From the NCBI RefSeq assembly GCF_003334335.1, contig NZ_QOWQ01000053.1: a DNA stretch of 20,311 nt. One strand, written 5' to 3'. Source of the DNA: Escherichia coli. GTDB taxonomy: Bacteria > Pseudomonadota > Gammaproteobacteria > Enterobacterales > Enterobacteriaceae. Positions 1-18,262 of the stretch are shown here, piece after piece (within the stretch, counting starts at the first letter, position 1; each line of letters starts with the position of its first letter). The notes under the pieces are model-generated. The model worked only from the letters and a program-made list of their open reading frames with translations. It ran no database searches and had not been told where the DNA came from. The translations under genes and the position numbers were made by a program.

Positions 1-126
1 AGTTATCGTGAGAGTAATTCATCGGCACGTTAAATCATATCAGGCGTAATACCACAACCCTTAAGTTAGCGCTTATGAGTAGTCTCCCCTCCCTGGCTTT
101 CGAAAAAGAAAAAATCGCCGATTCCG

Positions 127-2352
127 GTGCTGGATTTAGCGCCATTAGGCATTGAGCCAATCTGTTATCTGACAGAAGAAATCAGTAATCAACTTTTGGC
201 GAAATATATCTGGTATTCAAAACACATCACGGTTAGCCATGAAGAAAGTACTACCAACCTGTTGGCAAGGATGGGTTTTCAACGACGGATCGCTGGTACA
301 TGTATTAAAGCTCCCGAAGCGGTAGTTGAGGCATGGCTAAATGAAGATTATTCAACCTTACTAAGTGAATTTAAGGTGTTTCATTCACCTACCGGGCATT
401 ATTGGCAGTTGGGGATTTTGACAACATTGCCGCTGGAGAAAGCAGTAAAAGCATGGAATGCCCTTACCCTATCTCCACATACCGATACCGAATACGCCAT
501 GTTACATTTTGGACTCAAAGGGTTACCTGGGTTAGTAAACTCACTTGCACGCTATCCACAAGAAGCCTTGCCCATCACGAATTACTTCGCAGCGAGTGAG
601 CTGGCTCCTGCCGTCGCCCGTGCCTTCAACAAACTGAAAACGCTACGCGAAAACGCCCGTAGCTGGCTGTTGAAATACCCGGAACATGCCCTTACCGGCC
701 TGCTGCCTGCGGCGCTCGGCAAAGCCGGTGAAGCACAGGATAACGCCCGCGCTGCCTTGCGTATGCTTACCGAAAACGGTCATCAGCCATTACTGCAAGA
801 AATCGCCCGACGTTATAACCAGCCGGAAGTAACCGATGCGGTGAACGCTCTGCTTGCGCTCGATCCCTTAGATAATCACCCGACAAAAATCCCCACTCTT
901 CCGGCCTTTTATCAGCCATCGCTCTGGACGCGCCCGGTATTAAAAGCAAATGCCCAATCACTGCCAGATAGCGCCCTCCTCCACCTCGGTGAAATGCTCC
1001 GCTTCCCTCAGGAAGAGGCTCTGTATCCGGGATTATTGCAGGTGAAAGACGTCTGTTCCGCCGACTCACTGGCGGGATTTGCCTGGGATCTGTTTACCGC
1101 CTGGCAGACCGCTGGCGCGCCGTCGAAAGAGAGTTGGGCGTTCACTGCGTTAGGCGTTCTCGGTAACGATGACACCGCCCGCAAACTGACGCCATTAATA
1201 CGCGCCTGGCCTGGTGAATCCCAGCATAAACGCGCCACCGTTGGGTTGGATATTCTCGCTGCTATCGGTAGTGATATCGCCCTTATGCAGCTTAACGGCA
1301 TCGCCCAGAAACTGAAATTCAAAGCATTACAGGAGCGGGCAAAAGAAAAAATTGCCGACATTGCCGAGAGCCGCGAACTCACGGTGGCGGAGCTTGAAGA
1401 TCGGTTAGCACCGGATCTCGGTCTGGATGATAACGGTTCGCTGCTGCTGGATTTTGGCCCACGGCAGTTCACCGTCAGCTTTGATGAAACCTTAAAACCG
1501 TTTGTGCGTGATGTTTCCGGCAGCCGCCTGAAAGACCTGCCCAAACCGAACAAAAGCGATGATGAAACGCGGGCGAACGATGCGGTTAACCGCTACAAAT
1601 TGCTGAAAAAAGATGCGCGTACCATCGCCGCCCAGCAGGTAGCAAGGCTGGAATCCGCCATGTGCCTGCGCCGCCGCTGGTCGCTGGAAAACTTCCAGCT
1701 CTTCCTGGTTGAGCATCCGCTGGTTCGTCACTTAACCCGCCGTCTGATTTGGGGCGTTTATAGCGCCGAAAACCAGCTACTGGCTTGCTTTCGCGTAGCA
1801 GAAGATAACAGCTACAGCACCGCTGACGATGATCTTTTCACCCTGCCGGAAGGCGATATCTCTATCGGCACTCCTCACGTTCTGGAAATATCACCAACGG
1901 ATGCTGCCGCCTTTGGTCAGCTTTTTGCCGACTACGAACTGCTACCACCGTTCCGCCAGCTCGACCGTAACAGCTACGCCCTGACAGAAGCCGAGCGCAA
2001 TGCCAGTGAACTGACCCGCTGGGCAGGCAGAAAATGCCCGAGTGGTCGGGTCATGGGGCTGGCGAATAAAGGCTGGATAAAGGGCGAACCACAGGATGGA
2101 GGCTGGATCGGATGGATGATCAAACCTTTGGGTCGCTGGTCGTTAATCATGGAAATCGACGAAGGTTTTGCGGTGGGTATGTCACCAGCCGAACTTAGCG
2201 CTGAGCAGCTCTTAAGCAAGCTGTGGTTATGGGAAGGCAAAGCGGAAAGCTATGGCTGGGGGAGTAATTCAACACAGGAAGCGCAGTTCTCCGTACTCGA
2301 TGCCATCACCGCCAGCGAGCTAATTAACGATATTGAAGCCCTGTTTGAATAA
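127..2352 (+). CDS. molR: Large DUF4132-family protein, tandem paralog of YehI (MolR/YehH-like); possibly the 3' part of a disrupted longer gene
   Basis: Open 741-codon frame from GTG at 127 to TAA at 2350-2352. Its C-terminal half aligns motif for motif with the C-terminal half of the next ORF (GEMLRF, FAWDLFTAWQ.AGAP, DFGPRQFTV.FDE, RRWSL, FADYE..PPFRQL). All three plus-strand frames contain stops within positions 1-80, so no longer upstream frame is continuous here. Gene symbol is from recall of K-12 gene order. Confidence 0.65.
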   Translation: MLDLAPLGIEPICYLTEEISNQLLAKYIWYSKHITVSHEESTTNLLARMGFQRRIAGTCIKAPEAVVEAWLNEDYSTLLSEFKVFHSPTGHYWQLGILTTLPLEKAVKAWNALTLSPHTDTEYAMLHFGLKGLPGLVNSLARYPQEALPITNYFAASELAPAVARAFNKLKTLRENARSWLLKYPEHALTGLLPAALGKAGEAQDNARAALRMLTENGHQPLLQEIARRYNQPEVTDAVNALLALDPLDNHPTKIPTLPAFYQPSLWTRPVLKANAQSLPDSALLHLGEMLRFPQEEALYPGLLQVKDVCSADSLAGFAWDLFTAWQTAGAPSKESWAFTALGVLGNDDTARKLTPLIRAWPGESQHKRATVGLDILAAIGSDIALMQLNGIAQKLKFKALQERAKEKIADIAESRELTVAELEDRLAPDLGLDDNGSLLLDFGPRQFTVSFDETLKPFVRDVSGSRLKDLPKPNKSDDETRANDAVNRYKLLKKDARTIAAQQVARLESAMCLRRRWSLENFQLFLVEHPLVRHLTRRLIWGVYSAENQLLACFRVAEDNSYSTADDDLFTLPEGDISIGTPHVLEISPTDAAAFGQLFADYELLPPFRQLDRNSYALTEAERNASELTRWAGRKCPSGRVMGLANKGWIKGEPQDGGWIGWMIKPLGRWSLIMEIDEGFAVGMSPAELSAEQLLSKLWLWEGKAESYGWGSNSTQEAQFSVLDAITASELINDIEALFE

Positions 2353-2361
2353 GGAAAGAGC

Positions 2362-5300
2362 ATGGACAAGGAATTACCGTGGCTGGCGGATAACGCCCAA
2401 CTGGAACTGAAATATAAAAAAGGCAAAACACCACTCAGTCATCGCAAATGGCCGGGCGAACCGGTGCCTGTTATCACTGAAAGCATCATTCAGACACTGG
2501 GTGATAAATTGCTACAAAAAGCTGAGAAGAAAAAAAACATTGTCTGGCGTTATGAAAATTTTTCACTGGAGTGGCAGTCCGCCATCACGCAGGCCATCAA
2601 CTTGATCGGCGAACACAAACCCTCAATCCCGGCCCGGACAATGGCGGCGCTAGTCTGTATCGCGCAAAATGACAGCCAACAGTTGCTCGACGAAATCGTC
2701 CAACAAGAGGGACTGGAATATGCGACTGAGGTGGTGATTGCACGCCAGTTTATTACACGATGTTATGAGAGTGATCCTCTGCTAGTGACATTGCAGTATC
2801 AGGACGAGGATTATGGCTATGGTTATCGCTCAGAAACCTATAACGAATTCGATCTCCGACTGCGTAAGCATCTCTCTCTGGCAGAGGAAAGCAGCTGGCA
2901 GCGTTGCGCCGACAAACTCATTGCCGCACTGCCAGGAATACCCAAAATTCGCCGTCCTTTTATTGCACTACTCCTCCCGGAAAAACCTGAAATAGCCAAT
3001 GAACTCGCCAGTCTTGAAAGCTCCCGGTCAAGTCTCCATTCAAAGGAGTGGTTAAAGGTCATTGCTACTGATAATACGGCGGTAAAAAAACTCGAACGAT
3101 ACTGGGGCCTGGACGTATTTAGCGATCGCGAAGCCAGCTACATGTCACAAGAAAACCGCTTCGGCTACGCGGCCTGCGCCTCCCTTTTGCGCGAACAAGG
3201 ACTGGCAGCCGTTCCGCGCCTGGCAATGTATGCCCATAAAGAAGATTGCGGCAGTCTGCTGGTACAAATTAACCATCCGCAAGTCATCCGCACCTTGCTA
3301 CTGGTGGCTGATAAAAACAAACCCAGCCTGCAACGTGTGGCTAAATACAGTAAAAACTTCCCCCACGCGACGCTCGCCGCACTGGCAGAACTGCTGGCGT
3401 TAAAAGAACCACCAGCCCGCCCAGGTTATCCAATCATCGAAGACAAAAAGCTGCCTGCACAGCAAAAAGCACGCGATGAATACTGGCGTACGCTGTTACA
3501 AACGCTGATGGCATCGCAGCCACAACTGGCAGCAGAAGTGATGCCGTGGTTAAGTACTCAAGCCAGGGCAGTGCTGAATAGTTATTTATCGGCACCGCCA
3601 AAACCGGTTATTGATAGCACCGATAACAGCAGTCTGCCTGAAATGCTCGTTTCACCACCGTGGCGTAGTAAGAAAAAAATGACAGCTCCACGTCTTGATT
3701 TGGCACCGCTCGAATTAACTCCGCAAATTTACTGGCAACCAGGCGAACAAGAGAGGCTTGCCGCCACTGAATCTGCCCGTTATTTCAGCACGGAATCTCT
3801 TGCGGAACGCATGGAACAAAAAAGTGGACGAGTTGTATTACAGGAACTGGGTTTTGGGGATGATGTATGGCTGTTTCTGAATTATATACTCCCCGGAAAA
3901 CTGGATGCTGCACGCAATTCACTCATTGTTCAGTGGCATTACTACCAGGGGCGGGTTGAAGAGATCCTGAATGGCTGGAACTCCCCGCAAGCACAATTAG
4001 CAGAACAGGCGCTCCGCAGCGGTCACATAGAAGCGTTAATTAACATATGGGAAAATGACAACTTCTCACGTTATCGTCCGGAAAAGAGTGTCTGGAACCT
4101 GTATTTATTGGCACAGTTGCCGCGTGAGATGGCTTTGACCTTCTGGCTGCGTATCATTGAGAAAAAGCATCTGTTCGCGGGTGAGGACTATTTTCTCAGT
4201 ATCCTCGGATTGGATGCGCTACCAGGTCTGCTGTTGGCTTTTTCACATCGTCCAAAAGAAACATTTCCGTTAATTTTAAATTTTGGCGCAACAGAACTGG
4301 CGCTGCCTGTTGCCCGCGTCTGGCGACGTTTCGCGGCGCAGCGTGATCTGGCTCGCCAGTGGATTTTACAATGGCCGGAACATACGGCTAGTGCACTTAT
4401 CCCTCTTGTCTTTACCAAACCCAGCGATAATAGCGAAGCCGCATTACTTGCCCTGCGTTTACTGTACGAACAGGGACATGGCGAATTGCTACAAACCGTG
4501 GCAAACCGCTGGCAGCGTACAGATGTATGGTCTGCCCTGGAGCAGTTGCTTAAACAGGGTCCAATGGACATTTACCCGGCACGCATTCCAAAAGCCCCTG
4601 ATTTCTGGCATCCGGCAATGTGGTCCAGGCCTCGACTTATCACTAATAATCAGCCTGTTACCGGTGACGCTCTGGAAATTATCGGCGAAATGCTGCGCTT
4701 TACCCAGGGGGGACGTTTTTATAGCGGGCTGGAACAACTGAAAACGTTCTGCCAGCCACAAACGCTGGCAGCTTTTGCCTGGGATCTCTTCACTGCGTGG
4801 CAACAAGCTGGTGCCCCCGCAAAAGACAACTGGGCATTTCTGGCGTTAAGTCTCTTTGGTGACGAAAGCACGGCACGGGATCTGACGACACAGATCCTCG
4901 CCTGGCCACAAGAAGGCAAATCTGCCCGTGCTGTCAGCGGCCTGAACATCCTTACCCTGATGAATAATGATATGGCGCTGATACAGCTGCATCATATATC
5001 GCAACGGGCTAAATCCCGCCCCTTACGTGATAACGCGGCGGAATTTCTTCAGGTGGTCGCAGAAAATCGCGGGCTAAGCCAGGAAGAGCTAGCGGACAGA
5101 TTAGTCCCAACCCTGGGCCTTGATGATCCGCAGGCGTTGAGTTTTGATTTTGGTCCCCGGCAGTTTACCGTTCGCTTCGATGAAAACCTCAACCCGGTTA
5201 TCTTTGATCAGCAAAACGTTCGCCAGAAAAGCGTTCCCCGGTTGCGCGCCGATGACGATCAACTGAAAGCGCCCGAGGCACTGGCCCGACTAAAAGGGCT

Positions 5301-5985
5301 AAAAAAAGATGCTACTCAGGTGAGCAAAAACCTGCTCCCGCGTCTTGAAGCTGCCCTACGTACCACCCGACGCTGGTCGCTGGCAGATTTTCATTCTCTG
5401 TTTGTTAATCATCCCTTTACCCGTCTGGTTACCCAGCGATTAATATGGGTGGTTTATCCGGCAAATGAACCGCGTTGTTTACTCAAAGCCTTTCGTGTGG
5501 CCGCAGAGGGGGAGTTCTGCAATGCGCAAGATGAGCCAATTGACCTGCCTGCGGACGCTCTGATTGGCATTGCCCACCCGTTAGAAATGACAGTAGAAAT
5601 GCGCAGTGAATTTGCACAGCTTTTTGCCGATTACGAAATTATGCCGCCTTTTCGCCAGTTGTCGCGCCGCACGGTGCTGCTCACACCTGACGAGTCAACC
5701 AGTAACAGCCTGACTCGCTGGGAAGGTAAATCCGCTACCGTTGGGCAGCTTATGGGAATGCGATACAAAGGCTGGGAGTCAGGCTATGAGGACGCATTTG
5801 TGGGCGAGTACCGGCTGGTCCTTAAGTTTTCACCCGGTTTTAACCACTACAATGTTGATAGCAAAGCGTTAATGAGCTTCCGTTCTCTTCGAGTGTACCG
5901 TGACAATAAATCCGTCACTTTTGCCGAACTTGATGTGTTTGATTTGAGTGAGGTGTTAAGCGCACCTGACGTCATTTTCCATTAA
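2362..5985 (+). CDS. yehI: Large DUF4132-family protein YehI (1207 aa), function unknown
   Basis: ATG at 2362 lies 9 nt after the upstream stop and is preceded by AAGGAAAGAG (RBS). Long uninterrupted frame; size and sequence match my recollection of E. coli YehI; paralogous to the upstream ORF. Confidence 0.85.
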   Translation: MDKELPWLADNAQLELKYKKGKTPLSHRKWPGEPVPVITESIIQTLGDKLLQKAEKKKNIVWRYENFSLEWQSAITQAINLIGEHKPSIPARTMAALVCIAQNDSQQLLDEIVQQEGLEYATEVVIARQFITRCYESDPLLVTLQYQDEDYGYGYRSETYNEFDLRLRKHLSLAEESSWQRCADKLIAALPGIPKIRRPFIALLLPEKPEIANELASLESSRSSLHSKEWLKVIATDNTAVKKLERYWGLDVFSDREASYMSQENRFGYAACASLLREQGLAAVPRLAMYAHKEDCGSLLVQINHPQVIRTLLLVADKNKPSLQRVAKYSKNFPHATLAALAELLALKEPPARPGYPIIEDKKLPAQQKARDEYWRTLLQTLMASQPQLAAEVMPWLSTQARAVLNSYLSAPPKPVIDSTDNSSLPEMLVSPPWRSKKKMTAPRLDLAPLELTPQIYWQPGEQERLAATESARYFSTESLAERMEQKSGRVVLQELGFGDDVWLFLNYILPGKLDAARNSLIVQWHYYQGRVEEILNGWNSPQAQLAEQALRSGHIEALINIWENDNFSRYRPEKSVWNLYLLAQLPREMALTFWLRIIEKKHLFAGEDYFLSILGLDALPGLLLAFSHRPKETFPLILNFGATELALPVARVWRRFAAQRDLARQWILQWPEHTASALIPLVFTKPSDNSEAALLALRLLYEQGHGELLQTVANRWQRTDVWSALEQLLKQGPMDIYPARIPKAPDFWHPAMWSRPRLITNNQPVTGDALEIIGEMLRFTQGGRFYSGLEQLKTFCQPQTLAAFAWDLFTAWQQAGAPAKDNWAFLALSLFGDESTARDLTTQILAWPQEGKSARAVSGLNILTLMNNDMALIQLHHISQRAKSRPLRDNAAEFLQVVAENRGLSQEELADRLVPTLGLDDPQALSFDFGPRQFTVRFDENLNPVIFDQQNVRQKSVPRLRADDDQLKAPEALARLKGLKKDATQVSKNLLPRLEAALRTTRRWSLADFHSLFVNHPFTRLVTQRLIWVVYPANEPRCLLKAFRVAAEGEFCNAQDEPIDLPADALIGIAHPLEMTVEMRSEFAQLFADYEIMPPFRQLSRRTVLLTPDESTSNSLTRWEGKSATVGQLMGMRYKGWESGYEDAFVGEYRLVLKFSPGFNHYNVDSKALMSFRSLRVYRDNKSVTFAELDVFDLSEVLSAPDVIFH

Positions 5986-6046
5986 AAACACAGCGGGCAG
6001 TGATGCAACTGCCCGTTATCAACACGACTTACCAGCGGGGAAAGCG

Positions 6047-6364
6047 ATGATCGTGCAAAAAGAGCTGGTTGCTATTTACGATTATGAGGTCCCTGTACCT
6101 GAAAATCCGTTTTCCTTCAGACTTGAGATCAATAAATGCTCTGAATTATTTACAGGTTCCGTCTATCGACTGGAGCGATTCCGGCTACGTCCAACATTTC
6201 ATCAACGTGATCGAGAAGATGCTGACCCGCTAATAAATGATGCGTTGATTTATATAAGAGATGAGTGTATTGATGAGCGGAAATTACGAGGTGAATCACC
6301 TGAAACTGTAATAGCAATTTTTAATCGTGAACTACAGAATATATTCAACCAAGAAATAGAATAA
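6047..6364 (+). CDS. yehK: Small protein YehK (105 aa), function unknown
   Basis: ATG at 6047 preceded by GGGGA 6 nt upstream. 105-codon ORF that is visibly more AT-rich than its flanking genes. Followed by an intrinsic terminator. Confidence 0.7.
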   Translation: MIVQKELVAIYDYEVPVPENPFSFRLEINKCSELFTGSVYRLERFRLRPTFHQRDREDADPLINDALIYIRDECIDERKLRGESPETVIAIFNRELQNIFNQEIE

Positions 6365-6533
6365 TATACTCTAAATAATTCAAATTGGTCCGATCCGGCG
6401 CAACGTCCCAATGGCCTGGATTATAAATCTCATTATCTTAATTGCAACGGGGTCCAGCCGTGGTTATAATTCGTTCGTTGGAACACGATGTTGCACAGGC
6501 TGCGGTGTTGGGCCTGAAAATAGTAAATAAAAG

Positions 6534-6559
6534 AACCTGCCTCACCAGCAGGTTTTTTT
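6534..6559 (+). terminator. Rho-independent terminator after yehK
   Basis: Stem AACCTGC (6534-6540), loop CTCACCA, stem GCAGGTT (6548-6554), then a T-run (TTTTTTTATTT). An A-rich tract (AAATAAAAG) lies upstream, so it could act in both directions. Confidence 0.7.
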
Positions 6560-6670
6560 ATTTACTGTGATCTGCTTTCCAGATATTTTCCGCTCAAACA
6601 ACTAATGCGCCAAACATTTATTGCGCGTAAAATATCGTTTATTTCATTAATACATTTCAGGGATGAATAT

Positions 6671-7759
6671 ATGTCACCGCAGAATAATCATCTGCAGCGT
6701 CCGCCTGCTGCTGTGTTATACGCCGATGAACTGGCAAAATTAAAACAAAATGATAACGCACCTTGCCCGCCCGGTTGGCAGTTAAGTTTGCCTGCGGCCC
6801 GTGCTTTTATCCTTGGCGATAGCGCGCAAAATATTAGCCGTAAAGTGGTGATTAGTCCCTCCGCTGTCGAACGCATGTTAGTCACTCTTGCCACCGGGCG
6901 CGGTTTGATGTTGGTGGGGGAACCTGGCACCGCAAAATCTCTCCTGTCTGAATTACTGGCAACCGCTATTAGCGGCGATGCCGGGTTAACCATCCAGGGC
7001 GGCGCATCTACTACCGAAGATCAAATCAAGTACGGCTGGAACTACGCCCTGCTTATCAATCATGGTCCATCAACGGAAGCGCTGGTCCCTGCCCCGCTTT
7101 ACCAGGGAATGCGCGACGGCAAAATCGTCCGTTTTGAAGAGATAACGCGTACACCGCTGGAAGTGCAAGACTGTCTGTTAGGTATGCTTTCTGACAGGGT
7201 GATGACGGTGCCGGAACTCACTGGTGAAGCCAGTCAGCTCTATGCGCGAGAAGGCTTTAATATTATTGCCACTGCCAATACCCGCGATCGCGGCGTCAAT
7301 GAAATGAGTGCTGCGCTAAAGCGTCGCTTCGATTTTGAAACTGTCTTTCCGATTATGGATTTCGCCCAGGAGCTGGAGCTTGTCGCCAGTGCTTCGGCGC
7401 GTTTGCTGGCCCATAGCGGTATTCCGCATAAAGTGCCTGACGCGGTACTGGAGTTACTGGTCCGCACCTTCCGCGATCTGCGTGCCAACGGCGAAAAGAA
7501 AACGTCAATGGATACACTAACAGCGATTATGTCCACCGCTGAAGCCGTGAACGTGGCCCACGCCGTAGGCGTCCGCGCCTGGTTTTTAGCGAATCGCGCA
7601 GGTGAGCCAGCCGACCTGGTGGACTGCATTGCCGGAACCATCGTCAAAGATAACGAAGAAGATCGCGCTCGTCTGCGCCGTTACTTCGAACAACGAGTCG
7701 CCACACATAAAGAAGCTCACTGGCAGGCTTATTATCAAGCCCGCCACCGCCTGCCGTGA
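6671..7759 (+). CDS. yehL: MoxR-type AAA+ ATPase YehL (362 aa)
   Basis: Walker A GEPGTAKS and a Walker B-like hhhhFEE (IVRFEEITR) are present. ATG at 6671 preceded by AGGGA. The ORF-track start at 6605 has no RBS and would add 22 residues. Confidence 0.85.
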   Translation: MSPQNNHLQRPPAAVLYADELAKLKQNDNAPCPPGWQLSLPAARAFILGDSAQNISRKVVISPSAVERMLVTLATGRGLMLVGEPGTAKSLLSELLATAISGDAGLTIQGGASTTEDQIKYGWNYALLINHGPSTEALVPAPLYQGMRDGKIVRFEEITRTPLEVQDCLLGMLSDRVMTVPELTGEASQLYAREGFNIIATANTRDRGVNEMSAALKRRFDFETVFPIMDFAQELELVASASARLLAHSGIPHKVPDAVLELLVRTFRDLRANGEKKTSMDTLTAIMSTAEAVNVAHAVGVRAWFLANRAGEPADLVDCIAGTIVKDNEEDRARLRRYFEQRVATHKEAHWQAYYQARHRLP

Positions 7760-7769
7760 GGAAAGATGC

Positions 7770-10049
7770 ATGAGCGAGCCGTTAATTGTCGGCATCCGGC
7801 ATCATAGTCCGGCCTGCGCCCGGCTGGTGAAATCGTTAATCGAAAGCCAGCGGCCACGATACGTATTGATTGAAGGCCCGGCTGATTTTAATGACCGGGT
7901 AGACGAACTGTTTTTAGCCCACCAGCTTCCGGTAGCTATTTACAGTTATTGCCAGTATCAGGACGGTGCAGCCCCCGGGCGTGGTGCCTGGACGCCATTT
8001 GCTGAATTTTCGCCGGAGTGGCAGGCGCTACAAGCCGCACGTCGTATTCAGGCACAAACTTACTTCATCGATTTGCCTTGCTGGGCGCAGAGTGAAGAAG
8101 TGGACGATTCGCCTGATACGCAAGAGGAAAGCCAGGCCTTGCTGCTGCGTGCCACCTGCATGGATAACAGCGACACCCTGTGGGATCACTTGTTCGAAGA
8201 TGAAAGCCAGCAAACTGCATTACCCTCTGCACTGGCGCACTATTTTGCCCAACTGCGGGGCGACTCCCCCGGAGATGCTCTCAATCGTCTGCGCGAAGCC
8301 TTTATGGCCCGCTGGATTGGATGGGCGATGCAGCAAAATAATGGCGACGTGTTAGTTGTCTGCGGTGGCTGGCACGCTCCGGTACTGGCAAAAATGTGGC
8401 GCGAATGCCCGCAGGAAATTAACACGCCAGAATTGCCGTCGCTGGCAGATGCCGTTACAGGTTGTTATCTCACCCCCTACAGTGAAAAGCGCCTTGATGT
8501 GCTGGCAGGATACCTTTCCGGAATGCCTGCCCCGGTCTGGCAAAACTGGTGCTGGCAGTGGGGCTTACAGCAGGCGGGAGAACAACTGCTAAAAACGGTT
8601 CTCACCCGTTTGCGCCAGCACAAGTTGCCTGCTTCGACCGCGGATATGGCTGCCGCTCATCTGCATGCGATGGCACTGGCACAGTTGCGCGGTCATACAC
8701 TACCGTTACGCACTGACTGGCTGGATGCCATAGCAGGATCGCTGATTAAAGAAGCCCTGAATGCGCCGTTGCCGTGGAGCTATCGCGGCGTTATTCATCC
8801 CGACACCGATCCGATTCTGCTAACGTTGATAGACACATTAGCGGGTGACGGATTCGGTAAACTTGCCCCTTCTACGCCACAACCTCCTCTGCCAAAAGAT
8901 GTCACCTGCGAACTGGAACGTACCGCAATCTCCCTTCCGGCGGAGCTTACCTTAAATCGCTTTAACCCCAATGGACTAGCGCAAAGTCAGGTGTTACATC
9001 GGCTGGCAATACTGGAGATCCCAGGGATTGTGCGCCAGCAGGGAAGCACACTGACACTTGCAGGCAACGGTGAAGAACACTGGAAATTAACCCGCCCGCT
9101 TAGCCAGCATGCGGCATTGATTGAGGCCGCCTGCTTTGGTGCCACACTCCAGGAAGCCGCACGCCATAAATTAGAAGCCGATATGCTGGACGCGGGTGGA
9201 ATCGGCAGTATCACCACATGTCTTAGCCAGGCGGCGTTAGCGGGTCTGGCGTCCTTCAGTCAACAATTACTGGAGCAACTCACATTATTAATCGCCCAGG
9301 AAAATCAATTTGCCGAAATGGGCCAGGCGCTGGAAGTGCTATATGCCTTATGGCGGCTGGATGAAATTAGCGGTATGCAAGGCGCGCAGATATTACAAAC
9401 GACGTTATGCGCGGCTATCGATCGCACGCTGTGGCTGTGTGAATCTAACGGCAGACCGGATGAAAAGGAGTTTCACGCTCACCTGCATAGCTGGCAAGCG
9501 CTTTGCCATATTCTGCGCGATCTACATAGCGGCGTTAATTTATCCGGCGTTTCGCTTTCTGCGGCGGTAGCCTTACTGGAGCGACGCAGTCAGGCGATTC
9601 ATGCCCCGGCGCTGGATCGCGGCGCGGTTCTTGGCGCACTAATGCGTCTGGAACATCCCAACGCCAGTGCCGAAGCGGCGCTGACGATGCTGGCGCAGTT
9701 ATCCCCGGCACAATCCGGCGAGGCGCTGCACGGTTTGCTGGCATTAGCCCGTCATCAACTGGCCTGTCAGCCGGCATTTATCGCCGGTTTCAGCAGTCAT
9801 TTAAATCAACTAAGTGATGCCGATTTTACCAATGCCCTGCCCGATTTACGCGCGGCAATGGCCTGGCTACCGCCACGAGAACGCGGGACGCTGGCGCATC
9901 AGGTGCTTGAGCATTATCAACTGGCGCAACTTCCCGTTTCGGCACTGCAAATGCCGTTGCATTGTCCACCGCAAGCCATTGCACATCATCAACAACTCGA
10001 ACAGCAGGCACTGGCATCGCTGCAACACTGGGGAGTTTTCCATGTCTGA
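7770..10049 (+). CDS. yehM: YehM, large protein (759 aa) of unknown function
   Basis: ATG at 7770 is 10 nt after the yehL stop, with GAGGA immediately upstream. The ORF-track start at 7602 would overlap yehL by 158 nt. The stop overlaps the yehP start (ATGTCTGA). Confidence 0.8.
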   Translation: MSEPLIVGIRHHSPACARLVKSLIESQRPRYVLIEGPADFNDRVDELFLAHQLPVAIYSYCQYQDGAAPGRGAWTPFAEFSPEWQALQAARRIQAQTYFIDLPCWAQSEEVDDSPDTQEESQALLLRATCMDNSDTLWDHLFEDESQQTALPSALAHYFAQLRGDSPGDALNRLREAFMARWIGWAMQQNNGDVLVVCGGWHAPVLAKMWRECPQEINTPELPSLADAVTGCYLTPYSEKRLDVLAGYLSGMPAPVWQNWCWQWGLQQAGEQLLKTVLTRLRQHKLPASTADMAAAHLHAMALAQLRGHTLPLRTDWLDAIAGSLIKEALNAPLPWSYRGVIHPDTDPILLTLIDTLAGDGFGKLAPSTPQPPLPKDVTCELERTAISLPAELTLNRFNPNGLAQSQVLHRLAILEIPGIVRQQGSTLTLAGNGEEHWKLTRPLSQHAALIEAACFGATLQEAARHKLEADMLDAGGIGSITTCLSQAALAGLASFSQQLLEQLTLLIAQENQFAEMGQALEVLYALWRLDEISGMQGAQILQTTLCAAIDRTLWLCESNGRPDEKEFHAHLHSWQALCHILRDLHSGVNLSGVSLSAAVALLERRSQAIHAPALDRGAVLGALMRLEHPNASAEAALTMLAQLSPAQSGEALHGLLALARHQLACQPAFIAGFSSHLNQLSDADFTNALPDLRAAMAWLPPRERGTLAHQVLEHYQLAQLPVSALQMPLHCPPQAIAHHQQLEQQALASLQHWGVFHV

Positions 10050-11178
10050 ACTGAACGATCTTCTGACCACCCGTGAGCTACAACGCTGGCGATTAATTCT
10101 TGGCGAAGCGGCAGAAACGACGCTTTGTGGGCTGGATGACAACGCCCGGCAGATAGACCACGCGCTGGAGTGGCTGTATGGGCGCGATCCTGAACGGCTC
10201 CAGCGTGGTGAACGCTCCGGTGGATTAGGTGGCTCAAATCTCACCACCCCTGAGTGGATCAACAGTATTCACACGCTGTTTCCGCAACAGGTGATTGAGC
10301 GGCTGGAAAGCGATGCCGTACTGCGCTACGGCATTGAAGATGTGGTGACAAATCTCGACGTGCTGGAACGTATGCAGCCTTCCGAAAGCCTGCTACGCGC
10401 CGTTTTGCACACCAAACATCTGATGAATCCCGAAGTACTGGCTGCCGCCCGCCAGATAGTGCGCCAGGTTGTTGAAGAAATTATGGCGCGACTGGCAAAG
10501 GAAGTTCGCCAGGCTTTTTCTGGTGTCCGCGATCGCCGTCGCCGTTCATTTATTCCACTGGCGCGAAACTTTGATTTCAAAAGTACTCTGCGCGCCAACC
10601 TGCAACACTGGCACCCGCAACACGGCAAGTTGTATATCGAATCCCCCCGCTTTAACAGCCGCATTAAACGCCAAAGCGAACAATGGCAACTGGTCTTACT
10701 GGTTGATCAAAGCGGATCGATGGTCAATTCGGTGATCCACTCTGCGGTGATGGCGGCCTGTTTGTGGCAGTTACCCGGCATTCGTACCCATCTGGTGGCG
10801 TTTGACACAAGCGTCGTTGATCTCACGGCAGACGTTGCCGATCCGGTAGAGTTATTAATGAAAGTACAGTTGGGCGGCGGGACCAATATCGCCAGTGCCG
10901 TGGAGTATGGTCGGCAACTTATTGAACAACCAGCGAAAAGCGTCATTATCCTCGTGAGCGATTTTTACGAAGGGGGTTCATCATCATTACTGACGCATCA
11001 GGTGAAAAAGTGTGTCCAGAGCGGCATCAAAGTGCTGGGACTGGCAGCGCTCGATAGCACCGCAACACCTTGCTATGACCGCGATACGGCCCAGGCGCTG
11101 GTTAATGTCGGCGCACAAATAGCCGCCATGACGCCGGGCGAGCTGGCATCATGGCTTGCGGAGAATCTTCAGTCATGA
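10042..11178 (+). CDS. yehP: von Willebrand factor A (vWA) domain protein YehP (378 aa)
   Basis: MIDAS-like DxSxS motif (LVDQSGSM) followed by a G-G-T-N element, typical of vWA folds. Start ATG at 10042 overlaps the yehM stop by 8 nt. Confidence 0.85.
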   Translation: MSELNDLLTTRELQRWRLILGEAAETTLCGLDDNARQIDHALEWLYGRDPERLQRGERSGGLGGSNLTTPEWINSIHTLFPQQVIERLESDAVLRYGIEDVVTNLDVLERMQPSESLLRAVLHTKHLMNPEVLAAARQIVRQVVEEIMARLAKEVRQAFSGVRDRRRRSFIPLARNFDFKSTLRANLQHWHPQHGKLYIESPRFNSRIKRQSEQWQLVLLVDQSGSMVNSVIHSAVMAACLWQLPGIRTHLVAFDTSVVDLTADVADPVELLMKVQLGGGTNIASAVEYGRQLIEQPAKSVIILVSDFYEGGSSSLLTHQVKKCVQSGIKVLGLAALDSTATPCYDRDTAQALVNVGAQIAAMTPGELASWLAENLQS

Positions 11179-13178
11179 ATTCACTACGTCCGGAATTATT
11201 AGAACTGACACCACAGGCCCTGACGGCGTTAAGCAATGCCGGTTTTGTTAAGCGCAGTCTTAAGGAACTGGAAAATGGCAACGTCCCGGAGATCAGCCAT
11301 GAGAACGACGCTTTAATCGCCACCTTCAGTGACGGTGTCCGTACCCAGCTGGCGAACGGCCAGGCACTGAAAGAGGCTCAGTGCAGTTGCGGGGCCAACG
11401 GTATGTGCCGTCATCGCGTGATGCTGGTGTTAAGTTATCAACGACTTTGTGCCACCACTCAGTCTACGGAAAAAGAAGAAGAGTGGGATCCGGCAATCTG
11501 GCTGGAAGAACTGGCTACCCTTCCCGATGCTACCCGCAAACGCGCACAGGCACTGGTCGCTAAAGGCATCACCATTGAGTTGTTCTGTACGCCGGGCGAA
11601 ATTCCCTCTGCCCGCTTACCGATGAGCGATGTGCGTTTTTATTCCCGTAGCAGCATTCGTTTCGCCCGTTGTGATTGTATTGAAGGCACACTTTGCGAAC
11701 ATGTCGTACTGGCAGTACAGGCCTTTGTCCAGGCAAAAGCGCAGCAAGCGGAATTGACTCATTTAATCTGGCAGATGCGCAGCGAACACGTCACATCATC
11801 TGACGATCTGTTTGCCAGCGAAGAAGGCAAAACGTGTCGTCAATATGTTCAGCAACTAAGCCAGGCATTATGGCTGGGCGGCATCAGCCAGCCGCTTATT
11901 CACTACGAGGCCGCTTTCAGCCGCGCGCAGCAAGCAGCGGAACGCTGCAACTGGCGATGGGTGAGTGAATCGCTACGGCAACTGCGCGCCAGCGTTGATG
12001 CCTTCCACGCCCGCGCCAGCCACTATCATGCCGGAGAATGCTTACGTCAGCTTGCGGCATTAAACAGTCGATTAAATTGCGCACAAGAGATGGCGCGGCG
12101 CGACAGTGTTGGTGAAGTTCCTCCTGTGCCGTGGCGCACGGTCGTTGGCTCTGGCATTGCCGGAGAAGCAAAGCTTGATCATCTGCGGCTGGTGTCTTTA
12201 GGTATGCGTTGCTGGCAGGATATTGAGCATTATGGTTTACGCATCTGGTTTACCGATCCCGACACCGGCAGTATTTTGCACCTTTCGCGCAGTTGGCCGC
12301 GAAGTGAACAGGAAAACTCACCGGCAGCTACGCGTCGGCTGTTTAGTTTTCAGGCTGGCGCACTGGCGGGTGGGCAAATTGTTTCACAAGCAGCAAAACG
12401 CAGTGCCGATGGCGAGCTGCTGTTAGCTACCCGCAACCGCTTAAGCAGCGTTGTGCCGCTGTCGCCTGATGCCTGGCAAATGTTGAGCGCGCCGTTACGC
12501 CAGTCGGGCATTGTGGCTTTGCGGGAATATTTACGCCAGCGTCCCCCCTCCTGCATACGGCCTCTTAATCAGGTCGATAACTTATTTATTCTGCCGGTCG
12601 CTGAGTGTATTTCGCTCGGTTGGGATAGCAGCCGCCAGACGCTGGATGCGCAGGTAATCAGCGGCGAAGGTGAAGATAATCTGCTGACGTTATCACTGCC
12701 AGCCTCAGCCAGCGCGCCTTATGCCATTGAACGCATGGCGGCGCTTTTGCAACAAACAGACGACCCCGTGTGTCTGGTTTCTGGCTTTGTCAGTTTTGTT
12801 GATGGGCAATTGACACTGGAACCACAGGTAATGATGACAAAGACTCGTGCCTGGGCGCTGGACGCAGAAACTGCGCCTGTGGTGGCATCACTACCTTCTG
12901 TCAGCGTTCTGCCTGTGCCGTCTACTGCTCATCAGTTGCTGATGCGCTGCCAGGCATTACTTATTCAACTGCTCCATAACGGCTGGCGCTATCAGGAACA
13001 GAGTGCTATTGGTCAGGCAGAGTTGCTGGCGAATGACCTCACCGCGGTGGGTTTTTATCGGCTGGCACATGTATTGGGACAATTTCGTAATACAGAAAGC
13101 GAGGCACGGGTAGAAGCAATGAATAACTGCGTTTTGCTGTGCGAACAATTATTCCCCATGCTTCAGCAACAAGGATGA
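11175..13178 (+). CDS. yehQ: SWIM zinc-finger protein YehQ (667 aa as called here)
   Basis: Two CxC...CxH signatures (CSCGANGMCRHRVM and CDCIEGTLCEHVV) characteristic of SWIM zinc fingers. ATG at 11175 overlaps the yehP stop (ATGA). GGAG lies 11 nt upstream. The alternative in-frame ATG at 11151 is less well placed. Confidence 0.8.
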   Translation: MNSLRPELLELTPQALTALSNAGFVKRSLKELENGNVPEISHENDALIATFSDGVRTQLANGQALKEAQCSCGANGMCRHRVMLVLSYQRLCATTQSTEKEEEWDPAIWLEELATLPDATRKRAQALVAKGITIELFCTPGEIPSARLPMSDVRFYSRSSIRFARCDCIEGTLCEHVVLAVQAFVQAKAQQAELTHLIWQMRSEHVTSSDDLFASEEGKTCRQYVQQLSQALWLGGISQPLIHYEAAFSRAQQAAERCNWRWVSESLRQLRASVDAFHARASHYHAGECLRQLAALNSRLNCAQEMARRDSVGEVPPVPWRTVVGSGIAGEAKLDHLRLVSLGMRCWQDIEHYGLRIWFTDPDTGSILHLSRSWPRSEQENSPAATRRLFSFQAGALAGGQIVSQAAKRSADGELLLATRNRLSSVVPLSPDAWQMLSAPLRQSGIVALREYLRQRPPSCIRPLNQVDNLFILPVAECISLGWDSSRQTLDAQVISGEGEDNLLTLSLPASASAPYAIERMAALLQQTDDPVCLVSGFVSFVDGQLTLEPQVMMTKTRAWALDAETAPVVASLPSVSVLPVPSTAHQLLMRCQALLIQLLHNGWRYQEQSAIGQAELLANDLTAVGFYRLAHVLGQFRNTESEARVEAMNNCVLLCEQLFPMLQQQG

Positions 13179-13302
13179 AATAGTGCTTTTTACTAAGAGT
13201 TCTACTCCAGTTCCGGACTGCTCACACCACGGTATTAGGCATATCCTATATAGCCCCTGGTGAGAGTCACCAGTTCCTTGATTAAATAAAATGGAGTTTT
13301 AC

Positions 13303-13764
13303 ATGAAGGCTTTCAATAAGCTGTTTTCCCTTGTTGTTGCATCTGTTCTGGTTTTCTCTCTTGCTGGCTGCGGTGACAAAGAAGAATCGAAGAAATTCAG
13401 CGCCAATCTGAACGGCACTGAAATTGCCATTACCTATGTCTACAAAGGTGACAAGGTGCTTAAGCAATCTTCAGAAACCAAAATTCAATTTGCCTCTATT
13501 GGTGCAACCACCAAAGAAGACGCTGCCAAGACACTTGAGCCGTTAAGCGCCAAATACAAAAACATCGCGGGTGTTGAAGAAAAATTAACCTATACCGATA
13601 CCTACGCGCAGGAAAACGTGACTATCGATATGGAAAAAGTGGATTTTAAAGCCCTGCAGGGTATTTCAGGAATCAACGTTTCTGCTGAAGATGCCAAAAA
13701 AGGTATCACTATGGCGCAAATGGAACTGGTGATGAAAGCCGCTGGTTTTAAAGAAGTGAAATAA
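13303..13764 (+). CDS. yehR: Lipoprotein YehR (153 aa)
   Basis: Signal peptide with lipobox LAGC (MKAFNKLFSLVVASVLVFSLAGCGDK). GGAG 6 nt upstream of the ATG at 13303. The ORF-track start at 13291 overlaps the RBS. Confidence 0.85.
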   Translation: MKAFNKLFSLVVASVLVFSLAGCGDKEESKKFSANLNGTEIAITYVYKGDKVLKQSSETKIQFASIGATTKEDAAKTLEPLSAKYKNIAGVEEKLTYTDTYAQENVTIDMEKVDFKALQGISGINVSAEDAKKGITMAQMELVMKAAGFKEVK

Positions 13765-13770
13765 TCTGTC

Positions 13771-13795
13771 GGCGGCCATGTTTCGCATGGCCGCC
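13771..13795. terminator. Hairpin between convergent yehR and yehS, likely a shared terminator
   Basis: GGCGGCCATG, loop TTTCG, CATGGCCGCC: a perfect 10-bp stem between the two stop codons (13764 and 13805). The flanking U-tract is weak. Confidence 0.55.
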
Positions 13796-13804
13796 ATACC
13801 CGTC

Positions 13805-14275
13805 TTAGCTTTTCTTCACATGCTGGCGCGCTGCCAGTCCACGCAGAAAATAACGTAAAAATTGATCGCCGCATTCGCGGAAGTTTTTATGATCCGGTGC
13901 ACGCATCATCGCCGTAATTTCCGGCATCGAAACGCGGAACTGCTGTTCGGTGAGGATCGCCAGAATGTCATCGGTTTTCAGCGAAAACGCGATGCGTAAT
14001 TTTTTTAGCACGATGTTGTTATTAATGCGACGTTCCGGCTCCAGTGCCGGAGCAGACTCATCCTTGCCGCGTTTTTCATAAATCAGGCCATTGAGGAATG
14101 ACGACAAAACAATGTCCGGACAACGCTGAAAACCCTCTTCGTCTTCTTTACGTAGCCAGACGGCGATCTGTTCCGCGGTGGCTTCGACATTACCCAGCGC
14201 CAGAATACGCACCAGGTCATTATTATTGGCTTTCAAAATGTAGCGCACGCTGCGCAGAATATCGTTACTTAGCAT
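13805..14275 (-). CDS. yehS: YehS (156 aa), DUF1456-type protein of unknown function
   Basis: Minus-strand ORF. Preferred start is the ATG whose reverse complement is at 14273-14275, preceded by GAAGG (protein begins MLSNDILRS). The longer ORF-track start lacks an RBS. Confidence 0.75.
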   Translation of the reverse strand: MLSNDILRSVRYILKANNNDLVRILALGNVEATAEQIAVWLRKEDEEGFQRCPDIVLSSFLNGLIYEKRGKDESAPALEPERRINNNIVLKKLRIAFSLKTDDILAILTEQQFRVSMPEITAMMRAPDHKNFRECGDQFLRYFLRGLAARQHVKKS

Positions 14276-14321
14276 GAGGCCTTCAGGTGTTGATGAGGCA
14301 AAAAGCCATTTTAGCAGTCTT

Positions 14322-15041
14322 TTACAGGCCAATCGCCTCTTTTAAGCTTTTCAGATAACGGCGGCTGACCGGCACGGTTAAGCCATTACGCAAAATCAAC
14401 TCGGCCTGGCCGTTATCTTCCAGACGAATCTCCTGTAAATGCGCGAGGTTAACCAGATACTGACGATGGCAGCGCAGTAGTGGTGTACGACTTTCCAGGG
14501 TACGTAATGTCAATTCGGTAAAGCCCTCTTTCCCTTCGTGGCTGGTAACGTAGACACCGCTCATCCGACTGCTGACAAATGCCACATCTTTCATTTGCAG
14601 CAAATAAATCCGACTATGCCCAGTACAAGGGATAAATTTCAGCGCCTGTTGATTTTCTGGTAACAGCGAAACATCCTGCTTGCTGCGTTCCTGCCGCAAA
14701 CGCGCCAGCGTTTTCTCCAGTCGCGCTTCATCAATTGGCTTCAGCAGATAATCAAAGGCGTGTTCTTCAAAGGCTTTAATGGCGTATTCGTCAAACGCGG
14801 TGAGAAAAACAATATACGGACGATGTTCCGGGTCGAGCATCCCCACCATTTCCAGACCACTGATGCGCGGCATCTGGATATCGAGAAACAGCACATCCGG
14901 GCGCAGTTTATGCACCGCGCCGATCCCTTCCACGGCGTTTGAACACTCACCAACGATTTCAATATCGCTCTGCTCCTGCAAAAATACGCGCAGGTTCTCC
15001 CGTGCTAACGGTTCATCATCGACAATTAAGACTTTAATCAT
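14322..15041 (-). CDS. btsR: LytTR-family response regulator BtsR (YehT), 239 aa
   Basis: N-terminal receiver domain ([17 protein letters not shown] with the conserved acidic pair, plus a later phospho-acceptor Asp context) and a C-terminal LytTR-type DNA-binding region. Its start ATG overlaps the btsS stop (ATGA), indicating translational coupling. Confidence 0.85.
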
Positions 15042-16723
15042 GCCTCGTCCCTCCATGGTAGTCGTAACGTTATTCGGGTGTAACTATCAGGCTCACAGGC
15101 GACGCTTATCCCATAGTCATCGCCAAACCGTTCACGTAAACGCTTATCCACCAGATTCATCCCCAGCCCACTGGCATTGGTTACCGGTTGATACAAACCG
15201 GCATTGTCTTCGATCTCCAGCATCAAATGTTGCCCCTCACGTCGGGCGCTGATTGCCACTCGCCCTGTATCCAGCAGTTGTGATGTCCCATGTTTAATGG
15301 CGTTTTCCACTATCGGTTGCAGGGTAAACGCGGGCAATTGCTGCTGGGATAATTCTTGCGGAATAGCAATGTTGACCTGCAACCGCGACTGGAAGCGCGC
15401 CTTTTCAATTTGCAGATAAGCGTTCACATGTTCAATTTCGTCGGCGAGAGTAACAAACTCCGAAGGCCGCTTTAAGTTTTTGCGGAAAAAAGTGGAAAGA
15501 TACTGCACCAGCTGGCTGGCCTGTTCGCTGTCGCGACGGATCACCGCTTTAATGGTGTTAAGCGCATTAAACAAAAAATGGGGGTTCACCTGGGCGTGAA
15601 GCAGTTTGATCTCTGACTGGGTGAGCATCGCTTTTTGCCGCTCATATTGCCCGGCGAGGATCTGCGCCGAAAGCAGTTGCGCAATCCCCTCGCCCAGCGT
15701 GCGGTTGATTGAACTGAATAAACGGTTTTTGGCTTCATACAATTTGATGGTGCCCATCACCCGCTGATTTTCACCACGCAACGGAATTACCAGCGTCGAC
15801 CCCAGTTTGCATTGCGGATGCAAAGAGCAACGATAAGGTACTTCGTTGCCATCAGCGTAGACCACTTCACCGGTTTCAATCGCTTTTAAGGTGTAAGTCG
15901 AAGATATCGGTTTGCCGGGTAAATGGTGGTCGTCACCAATTCCGGTAAAGGCCAGCAATTTCTCTCGATCGGTAATCGCGACTGCACCAATATCCAGCTC
16001 CTGATACAGCACCTGTGCCACTTTCATGCTGTTCACTTCGTTAAACCCCTGGCGCAAAATGCCTTCCGTCGAGGCAGCCACTTTCAGCGCAGTGGCAGAA
16101 AAAGCCGAAGTGTATTTTTCAAACATCGCGCGTTTATCGAGCAATATACGCATAAACAGCGCCGCGCCGACGGTATTGGTGACCATCATTGGCGCAGCAA
16201 TATTACTCACCAGACGCACCGCATCTTCATAAGGTCGGGCGATCGCCAGGATGATCAACATTTGCACCATTTCAGCGACGAACGTGACGGCACCGGCGGT
16301 AATGGGGTTAAAGACTTTATCAGTGCGCCCGCGACGGATCAGGATGCTGTGTACCAGGCCGCCGAGCAATCCTTCAACGATGGTCGAGATCATGCAACTT
16401 AGCGCGGTCATGCCCCCCATCGAATATCGATGTAACCCGCCGGTCAGGCCAACCAGCCCACCGACGACCGGACCGCCGAGTAAGCCGCCCATTACCGCGC
16501 CTATCGCACGGGTATTGGCAATAGAATCGTCAATGTGCAACCCAAACCAGGTGCCCATGATGCAGAAGATGGAAAAGACGATGTAGCAGAGAAATTTATG
16601 CGGCAGACGAACCGTGACCTGCATTAACGGTATGAATAATGGCGTTTTACTCATTAACCATGCAATGACTAAAAAAACGCACATCTGCTGAAGCAGCAGC
16701 AACACCAGATTAAAATCGTACAT
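15038..16723 (-). CDS. btsS: LytS-type sensor histidine kinase BtsS (YehU), 561 aa
   Basis: N-terminal multi-pass hydrophobic region with glycine-rich helices, a central GAF-like region, and a C-terminal His-kinase/HATPase region ([14 protein letters not shown], then G-rich ATP-lid motifs). Start chosen at MYDFNL (16723); the GTG 5 codons upstream is an alternative. Confidence 0.85.
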
Positions 16724-17222: not shown

Positions 17223-17237
17223 TTACAGGAGGGTGTT

Positions 17238-17486
17238 ATGCGTGTTGAGATCTGTATCGCTAAAGAAAAAATCAGCAAAATGCCAAAAGGTTCTGTTTCT
17301 GCCCTGCAGCAAGAAATGCTTCGACGTGTCAGTAAACGTTATGACGATGTGGACGTGATTGTCAGAGCCGCCAACAATGACAGTCTCACCATTTTAAGAG
17401 CTGTAGATAAAGAATCCGCGCACGAATTTGTTCAGGAAACACTGCAGGAAGCCTGGGAAACCGCTGACGACTGGTTTATTCGGTAA
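17238..17486 (+). CDS. DinI-family protein (82 aa), prophage-encoded homolog of the SOS protein DinI
   Basis: [10 protein letters not shown]...[10 protein letters not shown]...[17 protein letters not shown] parallels E. coli DinI as I recall it (MRIEVTIAK...AANNLSVIG...QETWESADDWFVSE). Strong RBS and LexA-like boxes upstream. Confidence 0.8.
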
Positions 17487-17700: not shown

Positions 17701-18174
17701 TCACTCCGCACACGCAAGATGTTTCACGCTCACACCATACAGCCCGTTTTTCGCCATTCCCGTATACAGAAAGGTATTCACCGTCTTCGTGTGAATGCCC
17801 ATTTCACTGGCAAGGCGACAGGGTCTCGACTGGCGGTAGACGTAGCCAAACATCACCACCATCTCTGACATCGTCAGCGGACGGGCAACGCTGTTATACG
17901 TCCATACACCATTGCGTATGGCATCACTTATCTGCTCACCATCACGGAGTGATTCCGCACCCAGTTGCAGAAAATGCCGTCCCTGGAACATGCAGCGCAT
18001 CAGTCTGCCCAGCAACGTATCACAGATTATCAGCCAGGATTCGTCAAAGTCCGGGATATAACGGCGGTTCTCCGGCAGGAAAAACTCCCTCGCCAGTATC
18101 ACACTGTGTTCCTTCAGTAACGCCTGCAGACCATACTCCAGATAGCGATTCCTGGTAGCCAGAATCACCTTCAT
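17701..18174 (-). CDS. LuxR/GerE-type HTH transcriptional regulator (157 aa) with an atypical N-terminal domain
   Basis: C-terminal segment LTMSEMVVMF...RLASEMGIHTKTVNTFLYTGMAKNGL fits the LuxR-family HTH pattern (compare ...EIA..LGIS.KTV..H..NI..KLG). The N-terminus (MKVILATRN) is receiver-like but lacks the acidic pocket. Start chosen at the ATG with an AGGAAGG RBS. Confidence 0.6.
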   Translation of the reverse strand: MKVILATRNRYLEYGLQALLKEHSVILAREFFLPENRRYIPDFDESWLIICDTLLGRLMRCMFQGRHFLQLGAESLRDGEQISDAIRNGVWTYNSVARPLTMSEMVVMFGYVYRQSRPCRLASEMGIHTKTVNTFLYTGMAKNGLYGVSVKHLACAE

Positions 18175-18262
18175 CGCAGCACCTTCCTGTTTTTTATGCC
18201 CCATGAAAAACGGCAGACCAGAGTCCTGCGCCTGCCGTCATGCTTCATGTCACTGTCAGCAA

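Follow-up and report, generated by a model that had tools for sequence, protein, structure and literature searches.

The stretch of Escherichia coli DNA analyzed here, 20,311 nucleotides (nt) of contig NZ_QOWQ01000053.1 and hereafter called the window, begins with the end of an insertion sequence (IS). Next to it lie two adjacent genes that encode DUF4132 proteins, a truncated molR and an intact yehI, followed by yehK and by the genes yehL, yehM, yehP, and yehQ (table 1). It is very probable that the upstream gene is molR split after codon 507 by an element of the IS186/IS421 type, that its intact paralog yehI lies next to it, and that both genes belong to a conserved MoxR module. The original prediction had described the two genes as tandem DUF4132 paralogs, the upstream copy as disrupted at its 5' end, and the pair as linked in role to a MoxR/vWA/SWIM operon; the first two proposals are confirmed here, and the third is strongly supported by comparisons with other genomes.

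Table 1. Features located in the window (positions in nt from its first base; a period in the strand column marks features given without strand).
Feature	Position	Strand	Remarks
End of an IS186/IS421-type IS (IS4 family)	1..77	.	100% match to IS186B/IS421 ends
Target-site duplication, right copy	78..87	.	10 base pairs (bp), AGTAGTCTCC; left copy outside the window
3' remnant of molR (also yehH)	79..2352	+	Codons 508-1264 plus stop; no WGR, no N-terminal half
Dimorphic, allele-specific cassette in molR	148..540	+	MolR residues ~531-660, ~130 amino acids (aa)
DUF4132 domain (PF13569) of the remnant	1519..2076	+	Pfam E = 1.6e-50; residues 481-666; full 179-position model covered
yehI	2362..5985	+	Intact, 1207 codons; starts 9 nt after the molR stop
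DUF4132 domain of YehI	5221..5775	+	Pfam E = 8.1e-47; residues ~954-1138
yehK	6047..6364	+	105 aa; RefSeq annotation of matching loci
yehL, MoxR-family AAA+ ATPase	6671..7759	+	RefSeq and K-12 annotation
yehM, DUF5682 protein	7770..10049	+	Pfam DUF5682, E = 1.1e-97
yehP, vWA-domain protein	10042..11178	+	RefSeq and K-12 annotation; ~68% identical across classes
yehQ, two SWIM zinc fingers	11175..13178	+	RefSeq annotation; marginal Pfam SWIM
DinI-like gene in prophage end	17238..17486	+	
PHROG unknown-function gene in prophage end	17701..18204	-	
Tail or adhesin-like gene in prophage end	18263..19336	-	

The interrupted molR gene

The first 77 bases of the window match, at 100% in megablast, copies annotated as "IS4-like element IS186B/IS421" on many chromosomes and plasmids. 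They close with a 23-bp terminal inverted repeat, CAACCCTTAAGTTAGCGCTTATG, at positions 55–77 that directly abuts the interrupted gene. The rest of the element lies to the left of the window, where related genomes carry the transposase gene on the minus strand. When positions 1–2400 were compared by megablast with 5,426 complete E. coli genomes, most matched the window only from base 78 on. The identical junction, screened for as an unbroken match to positions 1–300 and confirmed with a 101-nt junction probe, is present in eight of these genomes. In loci L001 and L003, the junction runs leftward into an IS of 1338–1339 bp with 23-bp inverted repeats, annotated on the minus strand as an "IS4-like element IS421 family transposase", and beyond the IS lies a 1530-nt fragment annotated as "WGR domain-containing protein ... 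missing C-terminus". The 10 bp that follow the IS in the window are found at both IS ends in L003, L004, and L005, and as a single copy in L002 (strain WP3-S18-ESBL-07), in which molR is intact. Its two copies are identical in L003 and differ by one mismatch in L001.

The frame of the remnant extends beyond the open reading frame (ORF) that starts at the first GTG (127–2352, plus strand; 741 aa). It is truly open from base 79, which gives 757 codons, and is closed upstream by a TGA at 76–78 composed of the last two bases of the IS (TG) and the first base of the gene remnant. The remnant is collinear, base for base, with L002:6002–8275 of the reference allele, which occupies L002:4481–8275 and is uninterrupted at the same place (3795 nt, 1264 codons). 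A single amino acid change, C75Y, separates the two, and their DNA has zero differences across window positions 500–2500. RefSeq labels the same piece in genomes sharing the junction as [quoted passage not shown]. Intact MolR of L002 has a WGR domain (PF05406) at residues 6–69 (Pfam E = 2e-18). Pfam finds this domain in neither the remnant nor YehI, and neither window protein has the MolR-type architecture, in which an N-terminal WGR and DUF4132 are on one polypeptide. Searches for DUF4132 and WGR had been proposed as a check on the gene pair; the former is found in both proteins and the latter in neither, being present in the intact L002 allele.

Breakage of these genes takes other forms elsewhere in the species. 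The K-12 locus (NC_000913.3) is annotated as yehF, a 274-aa WGR coding sequence (CDS), and a yehH pseudogene, in agreement with the pseudogene status that the original prediction gave for molR in that strain. Two lesions are present there, TTA to TGA at codon 275 and a +1 frameshift caused by an additional G at gene nt 2845. The K-12 locus and the window share the paralog pair, the gene order metG-molR-yehI-yehK-yehLMPQ-yehR, and the lack of a functional molR. They differ in the lesions, in that K-12 molR is broken by the codon-275 TGA and the frameshift, whereas molR in the window is broken by the IS after codon 507 and leaves a remnant free of frameshifts and internal stops. Counted with exact 40-mer probes, the TGA allele at codon 275 is present in 707 of the 5,426 genomes and TTA in 2,281, with other sequence in the remainder. 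The remnant of strain G6/7 is annotated as frameshifted, and in L002, L004, and L005 it is yehI that has a frameshift or a truncation. A sublineage of sequence type 131 (ST131), represented by 184 isolates, has the blaCTX-M-15 transposon TnMB1860 in a "DUF4132 region" (PMC9334617). Many lineages can clearly do without these genes.

Lesions of the K-12 kind suggest an alternative: the upstream copy could have become a pseudogene long ago through frameshifts and nonsense changes, the stops within positions 1–80 being part of that erosion. The frequency of the TGA allele speaks for it, as does the presence of TGA upstream of the IS in L001 and L004, strains in which molR has therefore been hit twice. 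But bases 1–77 are IS and not degraded molR, the 757 codons from base 79 are open and one residue off the intact allele, and the window is undamaged at the position of the K-12 frameshift and begins downstream of codon 275. Erosion is contradicted inside the window and is very unlikely to explain the upstream copy, although it could apply to the 5' fragment if the codon-275 TGA is present there. Judged by its sequence, the truncation is caused by IS insertion and not by point mutation. Stops are indeed present in all three plus frames within positions 1–80, as had been noted, and the gene is not intact. The label of a decayed copy fails in that the part of molR inside the window has no decay, the stops being those of the IS end. 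Nor does the window hold the frameshift or nonsense changes that had been suggested as the cause; those of K-12 are separate events. Because 757 codons are open and only one residue departs from the intact allele, the insertion looks recent; the upstream copy is an insertional pseudogene fragment. An open frame could also mean that translation of the remnant, starting perhaps at the GTG at 127, still yields a DUF4132 protein that lacks its N terminus and is partly functional beside YehI. Homologs of 630–900 aa lacking the N-terminal half do occur in the database, though many may be contig fragments. However, an open frame is equally expected from a recent insertion, a promoter scan of positions 1–2500 predicted no sigma-70-like promoter, the GTG at 127 has no obvious Shine-Dalgarno sequence ahead of it, and the IS transposase gene is directed away from the remnant, so read-through from the IS is unlikely. 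We consider a truncated product improbable. With the transposase gene pointing away and no promoter predicted, the remnant of the split molR, which the IS has parted from its promoter and start codon as well as from the WGR domain and the N-terminal half, is probably silent in the source strain. There, transcripts started at the molR promoter should end short of yehI and yehLMPQ, and MolR would be lost, leaving the WGR-less YehI as the sole DUF4132 protein able to serve YehLMPQ.

The site of insertion is recurrent. Six further genomes have the IS in the opposite orientation at exactly the same position and with the same 10-bp duplication, for a total of 14 of 5,426 genomes (0.26%) over both orientations. 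Insertions in the same orientation sit on molR haplotypes that are 3–7% apart (window or L002-like versus L003). Other IS186 copies in E. coli have ∼20 nt of flank resembling AGTAGTCTCCCCTCCCTGG, the C-rich sequence next to the molR site. Because both orientations occur at one exact position and the flanks of other IS186 copies are similar, these comparisons indicate a putative sequence-specific hot spot for IS186 in molR. IS186 reportedly has a hot spot at the lon promoter and a consensus target (SaiSree et al. 2001, cited in PMC3045373). Like IS186/IS421 insertions at sequence-specific hot spots, of which the one in the lon promoter of E. coli B is an example, those in molR show 23-bp terminal repeats, a 10-bp duplication by a C-rich run, and recurrence at one exact position in both orientations. 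Unlike the lon promoter hot spot, the target in molR is inside coding sequence, at codon 507. The disruption is ordinary and is already annotated in public genomes (RefSeq, eight complete genomes).

Paralogy and divergence of the DUF4132 genes

yehI has its own ribosome-binding site, GGAAAGAG, and its product is 95% identical to K-12 YehI. BLASTP aligns the 757-aa remnant with YehI at 38% identity over 751 aa (E = 5e-156). The alignment includes all of the blocks from which paralogy had originally been proposed (FAWDLFTAWQxAGAP, DFGPRQFTVxFDE, RRWSL, and FADYExxPPFRQL). Full-length MolR aligns over residues 110–1204 with YehI residues 2–1160, again at 38% identity. On these alignments, YehI is a paralog of MolR that lacks a WGR domain and apparently never had one.

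To place the pair among relatives, we used 74 loci with 10-kilobase (kb) flanks, one genome per species, drawn from the best 80 of 555 matches and biased to the closest relatives. A second copy of the YehI type occurs in Escherichia and Klebsiella only; in Erwinia and Serratia, yehL is immediately preceded by one DUF4132 gene. DUF4132 genes have been duplicated independently in Massilia, Variovorax paradoxus 110B, and Chitinibacter. The loci of Massilia spp. (L045, L059, L062, L066, L068, and L074) have tandem arrays with up to 5–6 DUF4132 paralogs within ∼22 kb, some upstream of yehLMPQ homologs and others alone.

The beginning of the remnant overlaps a dimorphic cassette (table 1). The two cassette classes of E. 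coli are 28–66% identical in amino acids, versus more than 90% in their flanks. The form in the window is found in ∼3,400 genomes and the other in ∼2,000; correspondingly, in megablast ∼2,000 genomes match the window only from around base 539 on. Gene conversion from yehI was considered as the source of the cassette and rejected, as both alleles are ∼25% identical to YehI in this region. A third class of molR alleles diverges at residues ∼50–300. Divergence is also evident over the whole molR-yehQ cluster (window positions 500–13500), which differs from other E. coli strains by 3–9% per 500 bp in a mosaic pattern, and the adjacent yehS-btsR-btsS genes (13500–17000) differ by less than 1% between E. 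coli strains.

Conservation of the neighborhood of molR

Relatives of MolR are numerous. A representative search found 5,979 clusters at the 50% identity level (E ≤ 1e-3), with proteins mostly of 1200–1400 aa. When the 74 loci were searched by tblastn with the YehL, YehM, YehP, and YehQ proteins of the window, all four partners were found within 10 kb of the DUF4132 gene in 49 loci. If the count is restricted to the 62 loci whose downstream flank is 7 kb or longer, 45 have all four. Partner genes usually follow the DUF4132 stop by 20–500 bp and share its strand; four Burkholderia loci have them upstream of the DUF4132 gene instead. This synteny extends over several phyla and is seen in Enterobacterales, Burkholderiales, Xanthomonadales, Trichlorobacter, Mycolicibacterium, Holophagales, and delta-proteobacterial genomes. 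Identity to the E. coli proteins is ∼75% for YehL, ∼68% for YehP, ∼51% for the C-terminal half of MolR, ∼46% for YehM, ∼34% for YehQ, and ∼28% for the N-terminal half of MolR. All-versus-all clustering of ORFs in the 74 loci, a crude procedure because of spurious overlapping ORFs in GC-rich genomes, recovered no sixth conserved gene or effector beyond genus-level synteny. The recurrent gene order strongly supports a shared role of DUF4132 genes with the MoxR/vWA/SWIM genes in the MolR-like subfamily.

YehL gives its name to one of seven subfamilies of MoxR proteins (PMC3893208). It is 71–76% identical to its beta- and gamma-proteobacterial homologs, its best solved sequence relatives are the AAA+ modules of midasin, and its NCBIfam matches to the GvpN and MadB ATPases are weak and below threshold. 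YehP likewise has a weak, sub-threshold NCBIfam match to the vWA region of cobaltochelatase. The Pfam matches of YehQ to SWIM are marginal and cover residues 57–89 (E = 0.0013) and 161–184 (E = 0.21). Sequence searches of the PDB returned nothing for YehI, YehM, and YehQ, and no catalytic fold or motif was recognized in the five module proteins. The small yehK gene, located between yehI and yehL, has no Pfam match, and tblastn matched it in Escherichia loci only, among the 74. A metagenome contig (L007, 146–8935) carries a WGR-DUF4132 homolog 53% identical to the remnant, preceded by two unknown genes and one for HSP90/HATPase_c_3; its sequence stops shortly after the WGR-DUF4132 gene, before any downstream position that yehLMPQ could occupy.

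The remainder of the window contains two features of a different kind. Between yehK and yehL, an OrzO-P antitoxin small RNA (sRNA) gene is located at 6484–6559 on the plus strand (Rfam RF02083, 101 bits) with an intrinsic terminator. No small hydrophobic ORF of a ZorO-type toxin was found in 5986–6700, and the gene is not part of a zorO-orzO type I toxin-antitoxin pair. The yehK-yehL interval is 99% identical to that of K-12. K-12 is reported to lack zorO (PMC2887945), and zorO-orzO is the known occupant of the yehI-yehL interval in O157. OrzO-P looks like an orphan antitoxin sRNA. The other feature, directly after btsS and at the position of mlrA, is the end of a prophage (∼16900–20311). Strain G6/7 has, at the same spot, a short CDS fragment annotated as "hypothetical protein; incomplete" and then tail-fibre and gpJ genes. 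Seven PHROG families of unknown function (phrog_20839, 36602, 36295, 30700, 33984, 31592, and 29006) match all the yeh proteins (window positions 79–13178) near-full-length with near-maximal scores. We do not take these matches as evidence of a phage origin, as these families are probably host genes beside the mlrA-site prophage that were swept into prophage predictions. Such matches to chromosomal yeh proteins are a caveat for PHROG-based annotation.

Possible function of the module

Intact MolR (1264 aa) begins with a WGR domain, continues as a helical solenoid, and has its DUF4132 domain near the C terminus. An AlphaFold2 model of the 757-aa remnant, computed from an alignment of 57 sequences, has a pLDDT of 92.9 and a pTM of 0.82 and is in three parts, one of which is a small mixed subdomain at residues ∼1–130 that overlaps the allelic cassette. 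The C-terminal 318 aa were modeled with a pLDDT of 91, and this alpha/beta region has no close solved relative. The WGR domain of MolR matches a structural-genomics protein of Bacteroides, 2ra8 (E = 1e-17), and weakly matches PARP3.

Information on regulation comes from the molR promoter. molR is among the LexA-regulated genes with a known SOS box (PMC6590174), and its promoter is activated by BglJ-RcsB (PMC3950696). In L002, a LexA-box-like sequence, CTGGATAAAATTACAG (CTGG-N8-ACAG), is located 10–25 nt before the molR ATG (∼4456–4471). Given the LexA box and the BglJ-RcsB site at the promoter, expression of the intact module in E. coli probably rises upon DNA damage or envelope stress.

molR, yehL, yehM, yehP, and yehQ form a conserved five-gene module with the MolR-type gene first. 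We propose that the YehL AAA+ ring would bind and remodel MolR or YehI by way of YehP, the predicted MIDAS-containing vWA protein. The solenoid/DUF4132 protein (MolR or YehI) would serve as a scaffold or sensor subunit, the WGR domain of MolR may contact nucleic acid as in PARP enzymes, and additional subunits would be YehM and YehQ, the protein with SWIM fingers. In MoxR-vWA pairs and in midasin, a client is tethered by the vWA/MIDAS partner to the AAA+ ring, which remodels it with energy from ATP, and the WGR domains of PARPs contact DNA ends. The window resembles these pairs (RavA-ViaA, NorQ-NorD, and CbbQ-CbbO) and midasin in that a protein annotated as a MoxR AAA+ ATPase, YehL, is encoded with one annotated as a vWA protein, YehP. 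It differs in three extra conserved large proteins (WGR-DUF4132, DUF5682, and SWIM) that are absent from the characterized MoxR/vWA pairs. Likewise, MolR shares its N-terminal WGR with PARPs but has no PARP catalytic domain; in the window the IS has separated the WGR-coding portion from the rest of molR, and YehI lacks the domain.

Several points weigh against this account of the locus. The left IS junction and the 5' molR fragment lie outside the window, and we infer them from the eight genomes with the same junction; an IS-mediated deletion may have removed the 5' half of molR in the source strain. MolR is dispensable under many conditions, because many E. coli strains carry a broken copy of the gene (the nonsense allele alone accounts for at least 13%, in addition to K-12 and the ST131 sublineage). 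The tie of MolR and YehI to YehLMPQ is one of gene co-location. Three more distant DUF4132 representatives are without MoxR/vWA neighbors, and 13 well-flanked loci are without yehLMPQ, mainly the Massilia paralog arrays, Archangium, and Sandaracinus; synteny of DUF4132 with yehLMPQ is a trait of the MolR-like subfamily and not of all DUF4132 proteins. Binding of nucleic acid by the bacterial WGR domain is extrapolated from PARPs. Upstream of the homologs in Klebsiella, Erwinia, Serratia, and beta-proteobacteria no LexA box was found; control by the SOS response is therefore not a trait of the family and is perhaps specific to E. coli.

Two other roles can be considered for the module. molR/yehI-yehLMPQ could be an immune system against phages or mobile elements, with DUF4132 proteins as diversifying sensors. 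Features that recall immune sensors include the repeated tandem duplication of DUF4132 genes (Escherichia/Klebsiella, Massilia, Variovorax, and Chitinibacter), the dimorphic cassette of E. coli MolR, the divergence of the yeh cluster relative to btsSR, the frequent loss or breakage of its genes, and the drop in conservation from the core ATPase to the N-terminal half of MolR. However, a scan of eight window proteins against PADLOC-DB v2 matched no model at E ≤ 0.01, the five conserved genes yielded no effector domain of the nuclease, NADase, or pore type, and the locus is core-chromosomal, at a fixed position in 5,408 of the 5,426 E. coli genomes. The strong PHROG matches do not help this case, since they probably reflect host genes. 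Immunity is thus a possible function but a doubtful one. A role of MolR as a regulator of molybdate metabolism is hardly credible. The historical name, still propagated in some database entries, is all that speaks for it; no DNA-binding regulator or molybdate-binding domain was found, the conserved partners are MoxR ATPase, vWA, SWIM, and DUF5682 proteins and not molybdenum genes, and K-12, the host of studies on molybdate metabolism, has a broken molR. A more specific form of our proposal, offered tentatively and with limited expectation, is a five-component AAA+ machine in which the WGR-solenoid-DUF4132 protein is an exchangeable and diversifying sensor of nucleic acid, either damaged DNA or foreign DNA. 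If so, selection for the specificity of the sensor would lie behind the tandem paralogs, the ∼130-aa cassette, and the frequent inactivation, and the module would be a new kind of DNA-damage or immune surveillance system that is SOS-inducible in E. coli.

The disruption of molR is itself of little import, being a routine insertion of the IS186 family in a gene already known to be broken in K-12. The exact and recurrent IS186 site and the dimorphic cassette can serve as strain markers and may be signs of selection on MolR. Because both K-12 and the source strain are without intact MolR, they are unsuited to studies of the locus. Wider interest lies only in the function of the conserved five-gene module. 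Distributed from Enterobacterales to Actinobacteria and Acidobacteria, the DUF4132-yehLMPQ module is understudied and represents a defined target for discovery.

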